64,000 bases of DNA from Minisyncoccota bacterium (GCA_041674225.1 JBAYWG010000001.1:390273-454272), one strand, 5' to 3'. Numbered from the stretch's first letter, positions 2,913 to 19,077 are shown. A program made the numbers and translations. Notes: a model not told the origin generated them from the sequence alone.

Positions 2913-2984
2913 GCTCTTGTGGTGAAATGGATATCACAGCGGTCTTCGGAACCGTCGTTGGGGGTTCGAGTCCCTCCAGGAGCA
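2913..2984 (+). tRNA. tRNA-Arg (anticodon TCG), no encoded CCA
   Basis: Hand-folded cloverleaf: acceptor GCTCTTG/CAGGAGC, anticodon stem GCGGT/ACCGT with loop CTTCGGA, T-arm GGGGG-TTCGAGT-CCCTC, discriminator A then CAAAAG. Confidence 0.8.
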
Positions 2985-3006
2985 CAAAAGGTTTATACCT
3001 TTAAAA

Positions 3007-3077
3007 GCGGGTATAGTTTAGTGGTAAAATGAGTCCTTGCCAAGGATTAGACGGGAGTTCGATTCTCCCTACCCGCA
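3007..3077 (+). tRNA. tRNA-Gly (anticodon GCC), no encoded CCA
   Basis: Acceptor GCGGGTA/TACCCGC, anticodon loop TTGCCAA, T-arm GGGAG-TTCGATT-CTCCC. Confidence 0.8.
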
Positions 3078-3304
3078 CAAATAAGGGTTTTCTGGGGATA
3101 ACTATGGGGATATGTGTATAAAAGACATCATTTTTGTCTAATAAACAAGTTTGTGTTTTAAAATAGTGTTATTTATAGCCAAATAAAATTGTCTAATAGA
3201 CTTATATGTTTCACGTGAAACACTTTAGATCATGTGAATATCTTCATAATTCCTTGAGTTTTTCTTTAATACCGTTTCACATGTAACCATTTATGATGTA
3301 AAAC

Positions 3305-3679
3305 ATGAAAAATCATAAAGAATTTGGGAATTATTGTGAGGAAGAGGCGAGTTTGTTTCTTATAAGACAGGGATTTTCGATCTTGTTTAAAAACTATCTG
3401 ACGTCCTTTGGAGAAATAGACATTATTGCCGAGAAGAACAGCGTTATTCACTTTGTTGAGGTCAAGGCAGTTTCACGCGAAACATTCGAAAGGGGAATCA
3501 GACCTCAAGATCATGTTACACGTGAAAAGATTAGAAGGATAAAAATGGTTGCTCAACACTTCTTGGTTTCTTATGGATTGGCCGGAGTTTCCAATCAAAT
3601 TGATCTCGTGGCTATTGTCACAGCGCAAAAACTTTCCAAAGATTTAATTTCTATCGAATATCTACCGCAGATTTTCTAA
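3305..3679 (+). CDS. YraN/UPF0102 family endonuclease-like protein
   Basis: About 120 aa with a GEIDIIA...VHFVEVK core typical of the UPF0102 family. Confidence 0.65.
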   Translation: MKNHKEFGNYCEEEASLFLIRQGFSILFKNYLTSFGEIDIIAEKNSVIHFVEVKAVSRETFERGIRPQDHVTREKIRRIKMVAQHFLVSYGLAGVSNQIDLVAIVTAQKLSKDLISIEYLPQIF

Positions 3680-3726
3680 ATCTTTACTAGACCGAAGCAA
3701 TTTCAGGTGTTACTATGCTTTACATT

Positions 3727-3799
3727 CGGGGTGTGGTGTAACGGCTAACATGCTCGCTTTGGGAGCGAGTGACTCCGGGTTCGAATCCCGGCACCCCGA
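3727..3799 (+). tRNA. tRNA-Pro (anticodon TGG), no encoded CCA
   Basis: Acceptor CGGGGTG/CACCCCG, anticodon stem CTCGC/GCGAG with loop TTTGGGA, T-arm CCGGG-TTCGAAT-CCCGG, discriminator A. Confidence 0.85.
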
Positions 3800-7615: not shown

Positions 7616-7689
7616 GCGGGTATAGTTTAATGGTAGAATGACTGCCTTCCAAGCAGTAGATGGGAGTTCGATTCCCCCTACCCGCACCA
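7616..7689 (+). tRNA. tRNA-Gly (anticodon TCC) with genomically encoded CCA
   Basis: Acceptor GCGGGTA/TACCCGC, anticodon stem ACTGC/GCAGT with loop CTTCCAA, T-arm GGGAG-TTCGATT-CCCCC, then A-CCA. Confidence 0.85.
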
Positions 7690-13086: not shown

Positions 13087-14436
13087 TTACTCGTGCCACC
13101 TTCGTTCTGCTCGAATTGGTGCATCTGCAACTAGTTTTATGCGAAGGTCTGAAGGAAGAAAATCAAGGGTGAATGATCTTCCTTCGATTACAATCTTGCT
13201 TTCAGAAGTGTCTCGGATTTTTGATATTTCCCTAGCTGAAAATTCTATAACTTCTTTCTGATATTTTTTTGCGATGTCAGGGATTTTATTTTCAACCCTG
13301 CTTTCTCGGAGTGCTTGTCCGTAAACTTTTTTGATATCTAGATTCGTGTGAAAGAGTCTTAATTCTCCTGATGTGCTCTTGTAGTACATGTTTTTGAAGA
13401 TATTTTTTGTGAATTTTATTTTTGCTAGGTTTAGTAAAGTGAGGTATCTGAAAATGTCTCCCATTGAGAAGATTTTTGCGTTTAGTTTTTTTGCCAATTC
13501 TTTTGTGGTTGAGCTTTTTCCGACTCCACTTTTTCCTTCTAGAGAAATTATTTTGGTCTCCTTTTTTATGTCAGTCTCGATTATTTTGATAACATTTTTT
13601 ATTCCAATTACTTTTCCTGTATCTACTGTGATTGTTTTCTTAGGTTTTTGTATTCTCAATCCTTTGTTTGAAAGATTTTCTTTATTTACTTTATCTATCT
13701 GATCATCTCTGTGATCTCTTTCAATTATTGAATGTAGTATTTCACTTACCCCATGTGATTTTATTCTATGAGTTATTTTCTCTTTTCCTATTTCTGAGAC
13801 CACGCAATCTTTTATTATTGTATTCAGTTCAGCTGTTTTAAATTCCGAGAAGTATTTGTCACCAAAATCTCCGAGACCAGGAACTATATAACCTTTTTCG
13901 TCTAAACATTTATCTAGTTGTCCGATTATTATTTTAACTTTTGGATAAAGAGTTAAGATTTTATTTACTCCCTCTGGTGAGGCTAAGATGTTTGCTACGA
14001 CTATTTTTTCTTCTGCGACATTTTTCTTTAAACATCTTTCGATTGCGTCGATAATAGTGTTTCCAGTTGCTAACATGGGATCAACTATGATGACAAAGTT
14101 GTTTTTGTTTATTTTTCCCTCTTCAAAATCAACCTCTGTTTCTAGTGTTTCCTCGTTTCGCTTTGAGCTTAGGTGGTAATAATTTTTTATTTTAAATTTC
14201 TTTAGGCTCGGGATAAAAGCGAGTGCAGATCTCCAGGGAAGAATAACGACCGTGTTATTTTTTTCTATATGATTTAAAGATTCTTTAATTATTTTGTCTG
14301 TAATTATTTCAGAATTTTCTCTAAAGATTTTTCCTTTGGTTTGTTCATGAAAAGATTTGTTGGGATATCCGGCTCTTAAAATTTTAAATGCGGTGTTGAA
14401 TTTTTTATCTGGAGTTACTATTTTTATTTTCTTCAT
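13087..14436 (-). CDS. Uracil phosphoribosyltransferase fused to cytidylate kinase
   Basis: N-terminal half has DPMLATGNT and YIVPGLGDFGDKYF (UPRT). C-terminal half has P-loop ISLEGKSGVGKSS and cmk-like sequence. Confidence 0.75.
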   Translation of the reverse strand: MKKIKIVTPDKKFNTAFKILRAGYPNKSFHEQTKGKIFRENSEIITDKIIKESLNHIEKNNTVVILPWRSALAFIPSLKKFKIKNYYHLSSKRNEETLETEVDFEEGKINKNNFVIIVDPMLATGNTIIDAIERCLKKNVAEEKIVVANILASPEGVNKILTLYPKVKIIIGQLDKCLDEKGYIVPGLGDFGDKYFSEFKTAELNTIIKDCVVSEIGKEKITHRIKSHGVSEILHSIIERDHRDDQIDKVNKENLSNKGLRIQKPKKTITVDTGKVIGIKNVIKIIETDIKKETKIISLEGKSGVGKSSTTKELAKKLNAKIFSMGDIFRYLTLLNLAKIKFTKNIFKNMYYKSTSGELRLFHTNLDIKKVYGQALRESRVENKIPDIAKKYQKEVIEFSAREISKIRDTSESKIVIEGRSFTLDFLPSDLRIKLVADAPIRAERRWHE

Positions 14437-14460
14437 TTAATTTTATTATAGTTTATTTTT

Positions 14461-14512
14461 TCCGTTTCGTCCTTTTGGACTCATCAGGCAAAGAACTTAC
14501 CTTGCGACAGTG
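14461..14512 (-). ncRNA. Hammerhead ribozyme, type III (HHR-1)
   Basis: Minus-strand read: CACUGUC|GCAAGG-UAAGUU-CUUUGC (stem I) CUGAUGAG UCC-AAAA-GGA (stem II) CGAAAC GGA. Full catalytic core, GUC cleavage triplet. Confidence 0.8.
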
Positions 14513-14581
14513 GACGGATGGAACGTGCATCCGTCAATTTGTTTCAGTTTCAGGAAGTTTTTTCTCCCTAGTGCGCCTCGA

Positions 14582-14962
14582 TTAGCCGTGGCCGATGACC
14601 GGGACGCGACCGATCTCCTCTCTCTCCTCTTGGGCTCGTTGCCTTTCGCGGGCTTCTTCGTGGCCGAAAGAGCGGAGATAACTTTCGTCATGCTCTCGCT
14701 GCTCTTGCTCGTAGGATGCCCGAAGCGGTGTTCGGATCAAGGATGAGAGTTCGTCTCTGACCTCTTTGGGCCATGATTTCCTGATCCGCAGGAGGTCGCC
14801 GATGAATCTCTCAGCGTCATTGATATCGAGGTGTCCTCGCATCATTCGGCAGAGGTCTTCGGAGGTGTTTGGGTGTTGTCTGTTGGTCGGCATGGGTCGT
14901 TTGGGGCGTGGAGTTGGTGGGGACTGTTTCGTCTTGCTTCTACACTTGTAGAAGAGACTCAT
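14582..14962 (-). CDS. Hypothetical small charged protein between two hammerhead ribozymes (coding status uncertain)
   Basis: 126-aa ORF. Its 5' end overlaps HHR-2, so the true start is probably an internal Met. Confidence 0.3.
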   Translation of the reverse strand: MSLFYKCRSKTKQSPPTPRPKRPMPTNRQHPNTSEDLCRMMRGHLDINDAERFIGDLLRIRKSWPKEVRDELSSLIRTPLRASYEQEQREHDESYLRSFGHEEARERQRAQEEREEIGRVPVIGHG

Positions 14963-14990
14963 CAGGCGAGATACTTATCTCGCGACAGAA
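14921..14990 (-). ncRNA. Hammerhead ribozyme, type III (HHR-2)
   Basis: Minus-strand read: UUCUGUC|GCGAGAU-AAGU-AUCUCGC CUGAUGAG UCU-CUUCUAC-AAGU-GUAGAAG-CA-AGA CGAAAC AGUCC. Stem III is CUG/CAG. Confidence 0.8.
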
Positions 14991-15036
14991 GACGGATGGA
15001 ACGTTCATCCGTCAATTTGGTTCAGTTTCAGGAAGT

Positions 15037-15360
15037 TTATTCTTCCTCTGCGCCGGTGCGAATGTACCCTCTTCGCTCGAGTTCCTTCAGGCAGATATGC
15101 ATTTCCCTCGGACTACCTGCTTGAAACAGGACTCGCATTTGTTTGCGGGTTAGTCGGGCAGGGTTTGCTAGATTTGCTTCCGCTCTTTTCATTAGGCGAT
15201 TGAAGGCTTTCTCGCAAGCTGGCGGTGCGTGGCGGTCTTTGGCCTTTGGTGGTTCGGTTTGCTCGCGCATCTTGGCTTTTTGTGCGGAGATTATGCCGTT
15301 GTAGCGTGGTACGCAGGTGCAGGATGTGGTCATGGGTAGTTTGGGGTTTGGGGTTAACAA
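15037..15360 (-). CDS. Hypothetical small protein, possible HTH at C-terminus (coding status uncertain)
   Basis: 107-aa ORF upstream of HHR-2 on the minus strand. Confidence 0.3.
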   Translation of the reverse strand: MLTPNPKLPMTTSCTCVPRYNGIISAQKAKMREQTEPPKAKDRHAPPACEKAFNRLMKRAEANLANPARLTRKQMRVLFQAGSPREMHICLKELERRGYIRTGAEEE

Positions 15361-15747
15361 AGAACAAATTTATTTTTTTGTAAATTGTAAGGTCTAATCC
15401 AACATATTTATAGTCTAGTCAAATTGAGTCAATTGTTTTTATCAGAAGTGGTATTTTTATGTGCAGGGGGTTCAGGCAATATTATAAGTAAAGTATTTGA
15501 AAATATTTTTTATTTATGGTCAATGTGTACAGAGATGGGAGCGAGGTGAATTTAGTGGCTTTAAATATAGCTATTATTTGATTTTTCAGTGTAATTTTTA
15601 GTTTCAAAAAAACTTTTTTATACAACTTTTTTAAAAAAGTAGCAAAAAAATATAAATTCTGTCTAAAATTTGAAACATTATAAAAATGTAAATATGGCTT
15701 AAAATATGATAAAAAATGATATCTAAAATTAGAAACGACAAAAACGC

Positions 15748-15776
15748 TTGACAAAAAATGAAAATGGGTATATACT
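15748..15776 (+). promoter_or_regulatory. Consensus sigma70-type promoter (TTGACA-17 nt-TATACT)
   Basis: Perfect -35 TTGACA at 15748-15753, 17-nt spacer, -10 TATACT at 15771-15776, in an AT-rich region with upstream direct repeats. Confidence 0.6.
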
Positions 15777-15837
15777 ACTTTCAAACCTAAAACAAGCACA
15801 CAACATTCAACAACCAGCCAATAGAAAGGAGGAGGGC

Positions 15838-15888
15838 ATGATTTACCAAATCTACCCCGATGGGACCATTGTGGTCGTCCGCCGATAG
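15838..15888 (+). CDS. Candidate 16-aa leader peptide (MIYQIYPDGTIVVVRR)
   Basis: ATG 5 nt downstream of the strong SD AAGGAGGAGGG, about 55 nt from the predicted TSS. Stop TAG. Confidence 0.3.
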   Translation: MIYQIYPDGTIVVVRR

Positions 15889-16342
15889 GCCGGAATAGTG
15901 GGTTCGTTCAAACCGAATCTGCTCCCTTAAAATAAGATCTTCCACACGGTCTTATTTTAAGGTAGCGGAAGTTACCTAGTTCTTTAAAAGATAAAAGATA
16001 GCCTGCACCTTAATCAGAGTATTGCTAGTACTTTGATTAAGGCGCAGGACATTAACAGTTGTTTGGCGGCCTAAAAATAGGGAAACAAAGTTTCCCCTTT
16101 CGGCTGATCACCGATTGAACTACCCAGGAGGTTTGTGTCATGTTTGAACACGAGCAAGAAAGGTGGAGGAAGATGTTCACAATTTAAAGAACATCTGGAA
16201 GGTTGGTAACCGTAAACTGTTGTGGTGCATGTAAGGGTGCCACGATTGTCCTTTGGACAATCAAAAGTCAATGCCTAATCAATATTAGGTACACACGTCT
16301 ACACGAAGTGATGGAATGCTTAACCAGCTCCATGCACTTCGT

Positions 16343-16396
16343 CCTGTCGCGAGATGCATGTCTCGCCTGATGAGTCCAAAAGGACGAAACAGTTGC
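16343..16396 (+). ncRNA. Hammerhead ribozyme, type III (HHR-3)
   Basis: CCUGUC|GCGAGA-UGCAUG-UCUCGC CUGAUGAG UCC-AAAA-GGA CGAAAC AGUUGC. Shares stem I with HHR-2 and stem II with HHR-1. Confidence 0.85.
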
Positions 16397-16524
16397 ATTT
16401 TTAAAATATAAAATCTTTGTACTGCATTCCGTGTTCAATTCTTTTGGAAGATAAACACCACTCAATTTAATGTGGCCCCCAAAATTGGACACAGTGCTCG
16501 GTATAAAGATTTATACCAACAGTT

Positions 16525-16540
16525 CTTTAAATAAAAATAA
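16525..16540 (+). repeat. 16-nt direct repeat CTTTAAATAAAAATAA (copy 1 of 3)
   Basis: Exact 16-mer, also present at 17307 and 17776. Confidence 0.7.
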
Positions 16541-17252
16541 TCATTTTCTTGGAACTCCGCAGTCACAAAATTGAAACTAAAATTTGGTTTTAATTTTGTG
16601 GCTGTGGAGGGCCCGATAGACTCGCAAGAGTTGATAGGATAGTTGCCAAAAGACAATTACTATCCGGGTGTGTAAAAACATCTAAATCTCCATCTTGAAA
16701 CTAGTGTGCTCCGGGAGGGGTATCCAAACATTAGTGTAGAGAGCTGTAGAAGTCTGCAAACTTCGAAAGCAGTTAGAAGCGTTCAGGGCTGCAACCCAAA
16801 AACGTGGAAAGCCAAGTGTGCATCAGGCACGGCTCGCAAGGCTGTGTGCAGTGCACCCCTCTTTCTTGGCATGTCTTACAACTATATAAAGTTGCTAACG
16901 GCATAAAGAGGGAAATCAATCATCGTAGGGCTGTGCCACAATACCAGAGAATTGGGAAAACTCTGGGTGAAAAGTGGAAGAGGAACGCCACCTCAAATGG
17001 AAAAAGCCCCGGCCAGGGAAATATCCAAGAAGATGATTGAGGATAAAGGGTGCGCACACACCCTAAAACAATTCGGTGAGATTCCGAAATGTGTGGTCAA
17101 AAGACAGCTACCGTTAGCAGCGGTGGTCGGCTCGCAAGAGTATTGCTGTCATTGAGAGTATGTGAGCTTCGGCTTCTGACCTTTGTACTCTCTCCCAAAT
17201 TTTTCGGTTCGGAACTAGGTTCAACCGGGTTGTAAGTTATCCAAAAACTTTC

Positions 17253-17302
17253 TCTGTCTCGAAATGTAATTTCGACTGATGAGCTCAAAAGAGCGAAACA
17301 GA
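17253..17302 (+). ncRNA. Hammerhead ribozyme, type III (HHR-4)
   Basis: UCUGUC|UCGAAAU-GUA-AUUUCGA CUGAUGAG CUC-AAAA-GAG CGAAAC AGA. Stem III is UCUG/CAGA. Confidence 0.85.
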
Positions 17303-17306
17303 TGAT

Positions 17307-17322
17307 CTTTAAATAAAAATAA
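17307..17322 (+). repeat. 16-nt direct repeat CTTTAAATAAAAATAA (copy 2 of 3)
   Basis: Exact copy, immediately 3' of HHR-4. Confidence 0.7.
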
Positions 17323-17775
17323 ATTCTCTGCACCGAATTGCATTTAAGTTTTTTAAATTCAGTTCGGTGCAGGGAGTTGTTGCGACCCCATAGTACGTGA
17401 GTCAAAGAGGGATAAATGATACCCTCGCGAAAAGATCAGCTGCAACATGCTAAAAGAGCTTAGGAATTTATGCTCGATCGAAAAATTTCCAATCATATGA
17501 CCAAGGTCGAAAGACGCTGTTACATCTCCCAGAAGAGATGGTGCGACGAGGCAATCTAGAACGCCTTTTCAATCGCATTACCTAATGCCCTTCAACCGGC
17601 GGTTTATATTACTCGAGATTAGATCTCTTGCGGATATAGATTGGTTAACAAACGACAGGTTAGGTATCTCGTGTTGAATCGGGACATCATCGCAACAATT
17701 TTTCGCACTTTTTCAAAAAAAGTGCACTTCATTGAGCTTACGAAATTTGATATTCGCAAGTTCATAGAGTTTGTA

Positions 17776-17791
17776 CTTTAAATAAAAATAA
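17776..17791 (+). repeat. 16-nt direct repeat CTTTAAATAAAAATAA (copy 3 of 3)
   Basis: Exact copy, immediately 5' of element X copy B. Confidence 0.7.
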
Positions 17792-17793
17792 AA

Positions 17794-17895
17794 GTAGACA
17801 TAGCCAAAGGAATTTTTAAATAGAATTTCTTTGGCTATGTCTACTGAGTGGTAGATGAGCTGCACATTGGTCCGTTTGTGAAAAACAAGGACTCG
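17794..17895 (+). ncRNA. Structured leader element X (copy B)
   Basis: GTAGACATAGCCA...TGGCTATGTCTAC hairpin plus UGAGUGGUAGAU...GUGAAAAACAAGGACUCG. Paralog of 8960-9062. Confidence 0.5.
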
Positions 17896-17924
17896 TCTGA
17901 CGAACGTATCGTCACCCCAGACTT

Positions 17925-18245
17925 ATGAGCAAGCACCACTATCGTAAACCTGCTGCTAAACCTGTGTGTCCTTGCGGACATGCTACGACCGATGCTCTCT
18001 GGGTGTTAGACATCCAAGGAGACCGACCTATCAGGGTTCATCGGCCATGCGGTCAGGCGATCTTGAAGAACGCGCCGAAAGGAACGCAGGGCAAAATTCG
18101 TCCTTCCCGCGAGCTCAAAGAGATTCACAAGAAGCAGAGGTACGAGCGCGAGCTCTCCTCCAGTTTCTGGAACTCCAAGCTTGAAGGTGTCAAAGGCAAG
18201 TCTTTACAAGACTTGGTGAAGACCGCTCCCGACAGGCAGTCCTGA
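17925..18245 (+). CDS. Hypothetical basic Cys-containing protein (106 aa)
   Basis: ORF directly after element X. CPCGH...PCGQ suggests a small zinc-binding fold. Confidence 0.4.
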   Translation: MSKHHYRKPAAKPVCPCGHATTDALWVLDIQGDRPIRVHRPCGQAILKNAPKGTQGKIRPSRELKEIHKKQRYERELSSSFWNSKLEGVKGKSLQDLVKTAPDRQS

Positions 18246-18381
18246 TGGATTGGTTGAAACAAGTTTCTCTAGCTCTTTTCCTTTCAAAAAAGAGTCGCAC
18301 TGTCAGCGGATAATAATCAACCCCGCTAGACTAAGAGTTTGCAGATTTCTTAAATCTGCACTTACTTGAGCTTGCAACAAG

Positions 18382-18780
18382 ATGTTGTTGGTTCATAGAG
18401 TGTTAGTTCTTTCAAAAACAAAACAAAAAAATATGATCATCTCAAATGCATTTTCACTCAACATGTTTGAAACCCTCGAAGGAGAAATTCTCAGCAGAGA
18501 GCTTAGTGTCACGGAAATCTCGAAAGAGCAGGCTGTTGAACTTTTAACAGACCCTGAGCTTGGAGGAGTAGATTCAGCTGTTGGACATGCCGACACTGCT
18601 GCGCTTTTTTCTACGATTCTCGGAATCGAGATCCCGTGTGAGCGCAAGACGATTCAACTCAACCCTGAAAATGGTTGGCTTATTGTCGGGCAGTATCATG
18701 GACCACGTCTTGAAGAAGGAAGTACTACACTTCCGGAGGGTGCCAGTATTCGCTGGTACGAAATCGAGATTAAGTCTTGA
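18382..18780 (+). CDS. Hypothetical protein (132 aa; may start at internal Met 18439)
   Basis: ORF downstream of element Y copy B. Confidence 0.45.
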   Translation: MLLVHRVLVLSKTKQKNMIISNAFSLNMFETLEGEILSRELSVTEISKEQAVELLTDPELGGVDSAVGHADTAALFSTILGIEIPCERKTIQLNPENGWLIVGQYHGPRLEEGSTTLPEGASIRWYEIEIKS

Positions 18781-18789
18781 GAGATTATT

Positions 18790-19077
18790 ATGAATTTGGA
18801 AGAAATTTCAAAGCTCTATGATGATCCTCAAGATGCAATGAGGATTTTACAAACATCTGTTGAAGGAAAACACAGATATTTCCGAAACGAGAAAGCTTTC
18901 GAAAGGTTTCTGAGAAAAGAACAAGACTCATATCAGCGTCGCAAGACTGCTGGTGTTTCAAGTCCGGTTTCACTTCTTGAGAATACTCTCGACTCTTCTC
19001 CTTTAAGGAACGAAACTTTGCCCCCGGGCAGTAATGGTTTCAATGTGATTATCTGGCAGGAAACTTCCAAAGGATAA
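18790..19077 (+). CDS. Hypothetical protein (95 aa)
   Basis: ORF tightly following the previous one (10-nt gap), followed by a terminator. Confidence 0.45.
   Translation: MNLEEISKLYDDPQDAMRILQTSVEGKHRYFRNEKAFERFLRKEQDSYQRRKTAGVSSPVSLLENTLDSSPLRNETLPPGSNGFNVIIWQETSKG

Follow-up and report, generated by a model that had tools for sequence, protein, structure and literature searches.

Four hammerhead ribozymes on two divergent arms

The window analysed here is the whole 64,000-nt stretch of DNA from a Minisyncoccota bacterium (GCA_041674225.1, JBAYWG010000001.1:390273-454272), and we describe four type III hammerhead ribozymes (HHRs) in it, together with the genes and RNAs that they border. The ribozymes lie in two same-strand pairs on either side of an AT-rich divergent promoter spacer of about 400 bp (15340..15782), from which both arms of the locus run outward. 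On the minus strand, HHR-1 (14458..14515) and HHR-2 (14920..14993) alternate with small genes ahead of a conserved distal gene (13087..14436, -), identified by Pfam as a UPRTase-cytidylate kinase fusion (UPRTase-Cmk). On the plus strand, HHR-3 (16339..16396) and HHR-4 (17249..17305) bound a structured RNA. A preliminary description, made from the sequence, had placed four type III hammerheads here in a chromosome resembling those of the candidate phyla radiation (CPR), and the locus indeed lies in a 476-kb contig of a Candidatus Paceibacterota metagenome-assembled genome.

Each site has the same layout: the 5' strand of stem III, GUC, the stem I hairpin, CUGAUGAG, the stem II hairpin, CGAAAC and the 3' strand of stem III. 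The strict pattern CTGATGAG-N(6-34)-CGAAAC gave 4 matches in the 64-kb window, all confined to 14464-17299, against 0.03 expected, and none of 100 shuffles reached 4. With Rfam model RF00008 (Hammerhead_3) in E-value mode, the four sites aligned over the full model (E 2e-7 to 6e-5) with no match to another family, at 35.0 bits for HHR-1 (14459-14513 -), 35.2 for HHR-2 (14921-14991 -), 40.4 for HHR-3 (16341-16395 +) and 43.7 for HHR-4 (17251-17304 +). We also used a covariance model, R1, made from an alignment of 126 distinct copies from other genomes with the window excluded; it returned the four sites with E <= 4e-10 (59.6, 46.3, 68.1 and 70.9 bits, respectively) and no further match in the window. 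All four have the catalytic core CUGANGA...GAAA, the A15.1-U16.1 pair and the NUH triplet (CUGAUGAG...CGAAAC and GUC), and in the full-length RF00008 and R1 alignments they form a three-way junction in which stems I and II are closed by loops and stem III is open. As the preliminary description had proposed, they are genuine type III hammerheads of one diverging family, with stem I in common between HHR-2 and HHR-3 and stem II between HHR-1 and HHR-3.

The exact geometry required some corrections. HHR-1 (stem I GCAAGG/CUUUGC, stem II UCC-AAAA-GGA) has its predicted cleavage after C14506 (14506|14505; GUC = 14508-14506), and 22 nt separate its end from the UPRTase-Cmk start codon; the predicted cleavage of HHR-2 is after C14984 (14984|14983), and that of HHR-3 and HHR-4 at 16348|16349 and 17258|17259. 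The plus-strand positions first given (16348 and 17258) thus stood, and those on the minus strand (14512 and 14990) were about 6 nt off; likewise, the 910-nt plus-strand unit was confirmed and the minus-strand unit of about 500 nt became one of 478 nt. The perfect complementarity claimed for all stems II does not hold for HHR-2, the extended stem II of which is bulged (3 bp, a 2-nt bulge, then 7-8 bp) rather than a perfect helix of 11 bp.

Conservation of the ribozymes among relatives

Relatives of the locus, numbered L below, are contigs of other samples retrieved by protein look-up, including homologues of UPRTase-Cmk. The close ones are L037, which is identical, L035 and L158 (92-96% identical) and L036 (88-91%); the amino-acid identity of UPRTase-Cmk is 73% in L159/L160, 71% in L164/L165 and 57% in L163. 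An HHR array stands directly upstream of UPRTase-Cmk, in the orientation of that gene, in relatives at 96, 73, 71 and 57% identity, so that the search of other CPR genomes for syntenic arrays, proposed in the preliminary description, did find them; L161/L162, at 66% UPRTase-Cmk identity, have no HHR array. A recent insertion or mobile island, which we considered, is weakened by synteny reaching down to 57% identity of the flanking gene, though the 66% relative is without the array.

In L035, L036, L158, L159, L164, L165 and L163 the orthologous HHRs keep the core, and only N7 (U/C), H (C/A/U) and compensatory stem positions vary. The last ribozyme before the gene, orthologous to HHR-1, has an invariant core in seven sequences with three different versions of stem I (GCAAGG/CUUUGC, GACAAG/CUUGUC and UUGGAG/CUCCGA); its 16.3/15.3 pair covaries as U.G, C-G and U-A, and its triplet is GUC, GUU or GUA and never a forbidden form. 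Stem II of HHR-3 is UCC/GGA in the window and CUC/GAG in L035, with the triplet GUA in L036 and L159, and the extended stem II of HHR-2 reads CUUCUAC/GUAGAAG in the window and CUUGUAC/GUACAAG in L159. The HHR-4 orthologue of L035 scores 75.6 bits with R1. This is the pattern expected of active-type hammerheads that selection keeps active.

Two further copies in L163 (7466-7534 and 7910-7978, +) have CCGAAGAG and CCGAUGAG instead of CUGAUGAG, a change of U4 to C, with longer stems I and R1 scores of 22-28 bits; such copies may cleave slowly or not at all, or represent a separate variant.

A compact hammerhead subtype common in CPR genomes

A scan of one genome per species with the pattern UGUC-N14-24-CUGAUGAG-NNN-AAAA-NNN-CGAAAC listed at least 119 loci; since the pattern was taken from the window, the result is an enrichment and not a measured rate. 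Among the matches listed, CPR/Patescibacteria account for 79 of the 93 lineage-named loci, and stems I and II are intact in 130 of 133 matches. The exact 24-nt core with stem II was also present in 34 IMG/VR contigs. The subtype is compact, with a stem I of 6-7 bp and a UGUGUA-like loop, a stem II of 4 bp, usually with an AAAA loop, and an open stem III of 4-5 bp, and it is common in CPR/Patescibacteria genomes and in phage-like contigs. In the alignment of 126 copies, 93.9% of cells are paired and 13 of 17 pairs show double changes; the covarying pairs comprise all seven of stem I and three of stem II, the observed covariation score was equalled in 0 of 500 shuffles, and shifting the partners abolished the signal. 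Both loops are conserved across the class: loop I is UGUGUA-like, with U17 at 90% conservation or more, and loop II is mostly AAAA. Fast hammerhead cleavage at physiological Mg2+ needs a loop-loop tertiary contact, and the conservation of both loops is compatible with such a contact.

At the default gathering threshold, the Rfam scan of the window reported only four tRNAs and no hammerheads. The preliminary description had regarded scores below that threshold as decisive against its proposal, and the four scores do lie below 48.5 bits, yet the cut-off is unsuitable for this short-loop subtype, because it is passed by 1 of 20 viral copies and by none of the copies in 18 array loci, in the face of overwhelming covariation. 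Since the compact subtype falls under the threshold, standard annotation misses these ribozymes, and the RNAs bounded by them, in much of bacterial diversity. The sub-threshold scores and the two U4C copies of L163, with their low scores, are what could be said for chance motifs or decaying, functionless repeat relics; against this are the four matches where 0.03 were expected, the E-values of at most 4e-10 with an independent model, an orthologue core that admits permitted changes only, and the massive covariation, and we regard that explanation as extremely improbable.

The ribozymes of this class usually occur in same-strand arrays. Adjacent HHRs are on the same strand in 58 pairs to 1 in genome loci and in 9 to 0 in viral loci, with a median spacing of 668 nt, and the typical unit between them is one small open reading frame (ORF) with a median of 124 aa. 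Most of the 150 flanking ORFs are without a family; the families that do appear are scattered (HTH repressors, ArdC, MazF, methyltransferases, SAVED, receiver domains and fragments of the RNA polymerase alpha C-terminal domain). The folding z score is below -4 in 31 of 51 units, and units with less coding sequence tend to be more structured (r = 0.57 for z against coding fraction). Low-coding HHR-bounded units with z of -9 to -12 occur in L059 (2744-3261, -), L125 (5111-7445, +), L076 (2495-3134, +), L148 (367-1066, +), L128 (904-1584, -) and L108 (3386-4240, -), and these six CPR units have only the ribozyme and the linker in common with the RNAs of the window. Rfam searches of the 18 array loci found no twister, pistol, hatchet or HDV-like ribozyme and no known large RNA, and the island had no blastn match among 50,697 phage records.

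In two Saccharibacteria arrays, HHR-bounded units contain a 65-nt element that matches the Rfam transfer-messenger RNA (tmRNA) model at both ends (L113 5922-5986, +, and L098 7276-7340, -; 60-66 bits, E ~1e-20), with a T-arm and a 3' CCA; the L113 copy starts 16 nt after an HHR. ARAGORN called neither a tRNA nor a tmRNA at these elements, each of which, from its sequence, looks like a tRNA-like mini-RNA released by ribozymes.

Hairpins on both sides of the ribozyme

Across the class, 88 of the 105 upstream 40-nt stretches that fold at -6 kcal/mol or lower contain a hairpin ending 1-3 nt before UGUC. The preliminary description had placed an upstream hairpin at the 3' end of the cleaved RNA; this element is class-wide, and in the window it directly precedes the cleavage site of HHR-1, HHR-2 and HHR-3. 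At HHR-4, for which the same had been claimed, the hairpin named ends about 28 nt before the cleavage position, and in the predicted fold the closing helix of a large RNA domain lies nearest to that position. On the other side, a near-perfect hairpin, mostly of 19-28 bp, lies within 45 nt downstream of 57 of 212 HHRs, compared with 11% of control windows, and is preceded by AGAA(A)GUUCUUU and an A-rich linker.

These hairpins were located by Watson-Crick pairs only, and mismatches were then counted on the HHR strand. G.U outnumbered A.C mismatches by 79 to 19 in the long downstream hairpins (P = 7e-10) and by 35 to 8 in the upstream ones (P = 4e-5). Because the mismatches are G.U rather than A.C, the hairpins are RNA structures of the ribozyme's strand, and their interpretation as DNA palindromes was ruled out by this strand test.

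In the window, the downstream module follows HHR-4 at 17304..17378 (+), where the linker GAUCUUUAAAUAAAAAUAA leads into a long hairpin (17322-17378). The motif (A)GTTCTTTAAA, an A/U-rich run and a near-perfect hairpin of 20-27 bp recur in four copies, and only the third, at 17304, stands after an HHR; the other three, also on the plus strand, are at 15979-16048 (hairpin 16002-16048), 16522-16609 (hairpin 16555-16609) and 17773-17845 (hairpin 17793-17845). With at most one mismatch, the 18-mer of the motif was found nowhere else in the window. The linker with its long hairpin might be the site of a second cut by a host RNase, which is speculation. The ribozyme is the centre of a larger module that consists of a 3' hairpin, the cleavage site, the HHR, the linker and the long hairpin.

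The motifs around the ribozyme also bear on the idea of conditional cleavage, according to which the HHRs, and especially HHR-1, would respond to a metabolite, a protein or competing base pairing and so tune the downstream gene, instead of cutting constitutively. In deeply diverged lineages HHR-1 still lies about 20 nt before one and the same nucleotide-salvage gene. The short stem III, together with the conserved flanking motifs (upstream UGAAACUGAAAC, downstream GUUCUUU), could adopt competing structures, with GUUCUUU complementary to the AAAGGAC/AAAGAGC of stem II on reading the sequences; regulated cleavage was raised for phage HHRs by Perreault et al. (PMC3088659). Covariation of the downstream GUUCUUU with stem II was, however, not borne out on inspection, the HHRs carry no conserved domain of aptamer type, and the same module stands behind many unrelated genes. 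We consider conditional cleavage quite unlikely.

Minus arm: small coding cassettes ahead of UPRTase-Cmk

In the island stretch, the NCBI annotation contains only ORF-B, a DUF1874 gene and one further ORF. The order of the minus arm is ORF-A, a 3' module, HHR-2, ORF-B, a second 3' module, HHR-1 and UPRTase-Cmk. ORF-A (15037..15333, -; 98 aa, from the ORF list) is a predicted variable cassette ORF, and unrelated ORFs occupy its slot in other strains. ORF-B (14582..14893, -; 103 aa) has a ratio of non-synonymous to synonymous change (pN/pS) of 0.15-0.21 in its own frame against 0.8-1.8 in the other frames; it is a real gene under purifying selection. Its homologues form a single cluster among 5.8e9 proteins, and it matched no Pfam, PHROG or PADLOC family; it is a cassette gene without an assigned function. 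Because ORF-B is under purifying selection in its own frame, the island cannot be called wholly non-coding, as it had been at first; the minus arm codes for protein.

The 3' module of cassette B (14513..14569, -) contains a small hairpin (GGGAG..CUUCC), the motif UGAAACUGAAACAAAUU and the hairpin GACGGAUG..CAUCCGUC, which stops 3 nt short of UGUC. That of cassette A (14991..15047, -) has the same elements, and the two copies are 87% identical over 92 nt (the cassette A copy at 14956-15047). The module is also present in L035, L036, L159 and L163, with compensatory changes in the hairpin. A metagenome scan with the 3' module pattern gave 0 matches, in a collection evidently without the window's contig.

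The 5' untranslated regions (UTRs) of ORF-A and ORF-B (15334-15358 and 14894-14917, -) are made of C-rich repeats, for example GUUAACCCCAAACCCCAAACUACCC before the ATG, with G4T3-like runs on the opposite strand and no Shine-Dalgarno sequence; comparable C/A-rich leaders precede cassette ORFs in L036 and L159. The linker from HHR-1 to UPRTase-Cmk (14437-14458, -) is near-invariant, GGAAAAAATAAACTATAATAAAATTAAATG, in six of seven aligned sequences (the window, L036, L158, L159, L164, L165 and L163). A perfect TATAAT is found in the linker of all seven, 9 nt before the ATG in those six, and might serve as the -10 element of a nearly leaderless mRNA.

The cassettes upstream of UPRTase-Cmk differ between relatives: A and B in the window, A' (57 aa, unrelated to A) and B in L036, B and X (185 aa) in L035/L158, Y (65 aa) and Z (131 aa) in L159, and four cassettes in L163, of which the first is homologous to Z. 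An apparent loss of one cassette in L035 was overruled by the overlapping L158, which has ORF-B, an HHR-2-type ribozyme and then the 185-aa ORF. The third cassette of L163 (7998-8423, +) is a HIT-like ORF that resembles an HHR neighbour in a Saccharibacteria locus (L040 1057-1485, -). Small-gene families that recur beside HHRs in distant CPR lineages suggest a common cassette pool. The HIT-like cassette proteins carry QHFHLHLI or HQHFHLL, and the ORF-Z family, at 1632-2027 of L159 and 6997-7398 of L163 in different slots, is accompanied by its conserved 3' UTR.

This turnover could also reflect a role at the DNA level, in which the HHR-containing 3' modules serve as portable homology for the exchange of cassettes, in an integron-like hot spot, and cleavage is secondary. 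Six ORFs (A, A', B, X, Y and Z) alternate in the slots among close strains and species with the modules fixed, ORF-Z has changed slot between L159 and L163, the HIT-like cassette is common to Paceibacterota and Saccharibacteria loci, and the break points of strain differences fall at the borders of modules and UTRs. A purely DNA-level role would, however, not require the compensatory upkeep of core and stems or the strand bias towards G.U, and no integrase or attC-like site was seen near the locus, which makes this account of the ribozymes very unlikely.

The Logan contigs L035, L036, L037, L158 and L159 start or end inside HHRs or long hairpins. We set aside the possibility that the contig ends of L035, L036 and L037 are RNA ends; most likely the assembly broke there at repeated k-mers. 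HHR arrays will tend to fragment in short-read assemblies. Four tRNA genes lie upstream of the locus (2913-3799 and 7616-7686, +), three of them clustered within 900 nt, with no HHR nearby.

Plus arm: three structured RNAs and a distal gene block

The plus arm has a predicted near-consensus promoter, TTGACA-17-TATACT at 15748-15776, with an 11/12 match to the consensus and conserved in L035, L036 and L159. Before 17925 the arm has no ORF longer than 78 aa, and is divided by its ribozymes into three RNAs, of which RNA A and RNA B matched no Rfam family. The first, RNA A (15783..16348, +; z = -6.5), is a structured leader of about 566 nt with its 3' end at the cleavage site of HHR-3; it has long hairpins at 15918-15969 and 16002-16048, and its substitutions avoid pair breakage (P = 0.0005). 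Within it, a micro-ORF of 16 codons (15838-15888, +; MIYQIYPDGTIVVVRR) stands behind the strong Shine-Dalgarno sequence AAAGGAGG. Its frame is kept in L035 and L036 through a 3-nt indel, and in L159 it reads MIYRIHPDGTIEVIRRP, with 5 synonymous and 4 non-synonymous changes relative to the window; the sequence is such that it may encode a real peptide or serve as a leader.

RNA B (16349..17258, +; z = -8.5) is the 910-nt structured non-coding RNA bounded by the two ribozymes, that is, the HHR-3 body and about 860 nt more. Its hairpins include GNRA and UUCG types and a long one (16555-16609), its core (16680-17130) is near-invariant, and its 5' domain is nearly identical in L159. When the 28 substitutions in L035 were placed on a fold computed from the window only, 1 pair was broken, 13 were kept and 4 showed double compensatory changes, against 11.8, 5.3 and 0.12 under the null (P < 0.0005); ORF-B, taken as a coding control in the same pairing test, gave zero double changes. 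Two hairpins of the window changed from GCUC-GCAA-GAGU to ACCU-GAAA-GGGU and from UGU-AAAA-ACA to UAC-GAAA-GUA, so that an A-rich or GNRA-type tetraloop was retained on compensatory stems. Neither the window nor 1.1 Mb of related loci contained a second copy of RNA B, exact IMG/VR scans with two invariant pieces of it gave 0 matches, and blastn of the plus arm against the 1.1 Mb of HHR loci found only the HHRs and the post-HHR motif in common.

The third RNA, RNA C (17306..17924, +), is a highly structured non-coding stretch of about 620 nt from HHR-4 to the distal ORFs (z = -12.4), identical in L037. It is followed by a distal block (17925..19077, +) of three small genes: ORF3 (17925-18245; 106 aa), a B116/DUF1874/Csx16-like protein gene (18382-18780; Pfam PF08960 with E 1e-9, phrog_5063, PADLOC Csx16, NCBI DUF1874) and ORF5 (18790-19077; 95 aa). 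PHROG and PADLOC scans of the island proteins gave nothing beyond this one match, and a metagenome search with the B116-like protein returned one distant, hammerhead-free locus (L157).

A unit such as RNA B raises the question of circular RNA of the retrozyme or viroid type: RNA B, and perhaps the 478-nt ORF-B unit, would be circularised after double cleavage, the 5'-OH and 2',3'-cyclic phosphate ends being joined over a chimeric stem III by the ribozyme or by an RtcB-type ligase. Each unit is bounded by two same-strand type III HHRs, and since the 4-bp core of stem III (CUGUC/GAAACAG) is common to all copies, a chimeric hammerhead can form from the unit ends, with the pairs kept in both window units. 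RNA B is moreover non-coding, structured and conserved, and its 910 nt resemble retrozyme circular RNAs of 600-1000 nt (PMC6155905). The variable fifth pair (15.5/16.5) speaks otherwise: it pairs in a fraction of 0.70 within an HHR, 0.55 across neighbours and 0.49 at random, and because the cross-neighbour value is near the random one there is no selection for circle-specific pairing. The unit ends are otherwise non-complementary, the 3' end of RNA B closes on an internal helix, and the abutting 3' hairpin suits a linear, exonuclease-protected end and has no obvious use in a circle. Neither LTR-like (long terminal repeat) repeats nor a reverse transcriptase were seen in the island, the locus is a chromosomal operon region conserved by vertical descent, and Perreault et al. 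sought circular or spliced products of bacterial HHR clusters and detected none (PMC3088659). Circularisation therefore appears to us rather unlikely.

A wider version, for which we see a small chance, joins several of these elements: a CPR-wide RNA cassette system would release double-cleaved units (RNA B, the tRNA-like mini-RNAs), some of them circularised, and its modules would be joints for gene swaps between CPR chromosomes and phages. We hold it to be unlikely; if true, it would mean DNA-encoded circular RNAs in bacteria.

Transcript punctuation as the favoured mechanism

The explanation that we consider likely is that the HHRs are RNA punctuation, cutting long transcripts into mRNAs of small genes and into structured RNAs. 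The locus would be transcribed outward on both arms from the AT-rich spacer. The minus-arm transcript would carry cassette A, HHR-2, cassette B, HHR-1 and UPRTase-Cmk, and co-transcriptional self-cleavage would part its cistrons. The upstream product would end in a hairpin 5-8 nt from its 2',3'-cyclic phosphate end and the downstream product would have a 5'-OH and the folded ribozyme body at its 5' end; the UPRTase-Cmk mRNA would therefore carry HHR-1 as its leader. On the other arm, a transcript from the 15748-15776 promoter would be cut at 16348|16349 and 17258|17259 into the ~566-nt leader with the 16-aa micro-ORF, the 910-nt structured RNA and a 3' part with HHR-4, the A/U-rich linker, the long hairpin and the three small genes. 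The likely effect would be to uncouple the stability and dosage of adjacent RNAs. There is precedent in clustered HHRs beside genes, for which cleavage was observed in vitro and in E. coli and a role in polycistronic processing was proposed (PMC3088659).

Several points weigh against transcript punctuation. The four window sites score 35.0-43.7 bits, under the RF00008 gathering score of 48.5, and their stem III is short, only 4-5 bp. The computation shows the motif, its covariation and conservation, hairpins at the RNA level, the coding status of ORF-B and the synteny; the transcription units, cleavage in vivo and the effects on stability are what we infer. In the promoter scan, no minus-arm promoter rose above threshold, and the conserved TATAAT 9 nt before the start codon means that UPRTase-Cmk may have a promoter of its own, by which the co-transcription step would be weakened. 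Finally, processing accounts neither for the role of the linker and long hairpin nor for about 2 kb of conserved structured RNA on the plus arm.

The present locus makes the question of what prokaryotic hammerheads do directly testable: one ribozyme has stayed at one gene junction through deep divergence, the strains form a natural cassette-swap series, and protein-coding and RNA-only units both lie between ribozymes. The composite module of 3' hairpin, HHR, A/U linker and long hairpin suggests a defined mechanism for making RNA ends.

Comparison with known systems

In the early genes of phage T7, intercistronic RNase III sites cut a polycistronic transcript into discrete mRNAs, each with a protective terminal hairpin. 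The hairpins of 20-27 bp that follow the HHRs resemble possible RNase III substrates, but here the RNA itself cuts. Viroid-like circular RNAs and Obelisks combine type III hammerheads with extensively structured RNA of about 1 kb, and are RNA replicons without a DNA copy. The window shares with them a type III hammerhead next to a structured RNA of about 1 kb; unlike them, it is chromosome-encoded at a conserved site and has no Oblin-like ORF. It does not qualify as an RNA-only replicon because the locus is chromosomal, between housekeeping genes on the 476-kb contig, and syntenic across species.

A hammerhead directly before a gene is known from the haloviruses HF1/HF2, where the HHphage ribozyme, with a variant core that needs high Mg2+, lies 13 nt upstream of a helicase start codon (PMC3088659). 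HHR-1 stands in the same way before UPRTase-Cmk, and in both cases the cleaved mRNA would start at or with the ribozyme; the halovirus example is from an archaeal virus, whereas HHR-1 has a canonical core, precedes a chromosomal gene and has a cassette array upstream.

In plant and animal retrozymes, same-orientation type III HHRs bound a non-coding structured RNA of 600-1000 nt (Cervera et al. 2016, as summarised in PMC6155905). The likeness holds for RNA B only, which is such a unit of 910 nt with no ORF longer than 78 aa; the minus-arm unit encodes ORF-B. The present locus differs in being prokaryotic, syntenic and vertically inherited, with coding units on the minus arm; LTR-like direct repeats do not surround the plus-arm HHRs, and there is no sign of retro-mobility. 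Since retrozyme HHRs are embedded in long direct repeats that flank the unit, the locus does not qualify as a retrozyme on this count: its only repeat is the 92-nt 3' module of the minus arm, and the flanks of the plus-arm HHRs contain no repeat beyond the ribozyme and the 19-nt motif.

A close likeness in arrangement is to the prophage clusters of Perreault et al. (2011), in which several same-strand HHRs lie beside single small non-conserved ORFs, with anti-restriction, repressor and toxin-type genes near some arrays, and for which cutting into gene-length pieces was proposed (PMC3088659, PMC6155905). Such prokaryotic HHRs occur close together, are linked to phages and cleave in vitro and in E. 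coli, and their function is open (PMC3088659, PMC6155905). Since clustered HHRs beside small ORFs were already published, the present locus is less surprising than the preliminary description had assumed. Same-orientation HHRs that flank small non-conserved ORFs are found in the minus arm of the window and class-wide. On a prophage context the signs are mixed: no integrase or phage structural gene adjoins the island, no phage record is similar and the locus is syntenic across species; one gene, that for the B116/DUF1874 protein, is typical of viruses and defence loci, and the exact core is present in the 34 IMG/VR contigs. Unlike those clusters, the locus belongs to a CPR host and is a vertically conserved operon region before a housekeeping gene with no obvious prophage, its ribozymes are of one compact type III subtype missed by the Rfam cut-off, and the ribozyme sits inside a larger conserved RNA module, some units being RNA-only.

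In the literature searched, no paper linked hammerheads with Patescibacteria/CPR. Relative to that literature, what is new is the abundance in CPR of a compact type III subtype that escapes the Rfam cut-off, the composite module of hairpin, HHR, linker and hairpin, the RNA-only structured units between ribozymes, and a vertically conserved locus in which HHRs punctuate turnover-prone cassettes ahead of a housekeeping gene.

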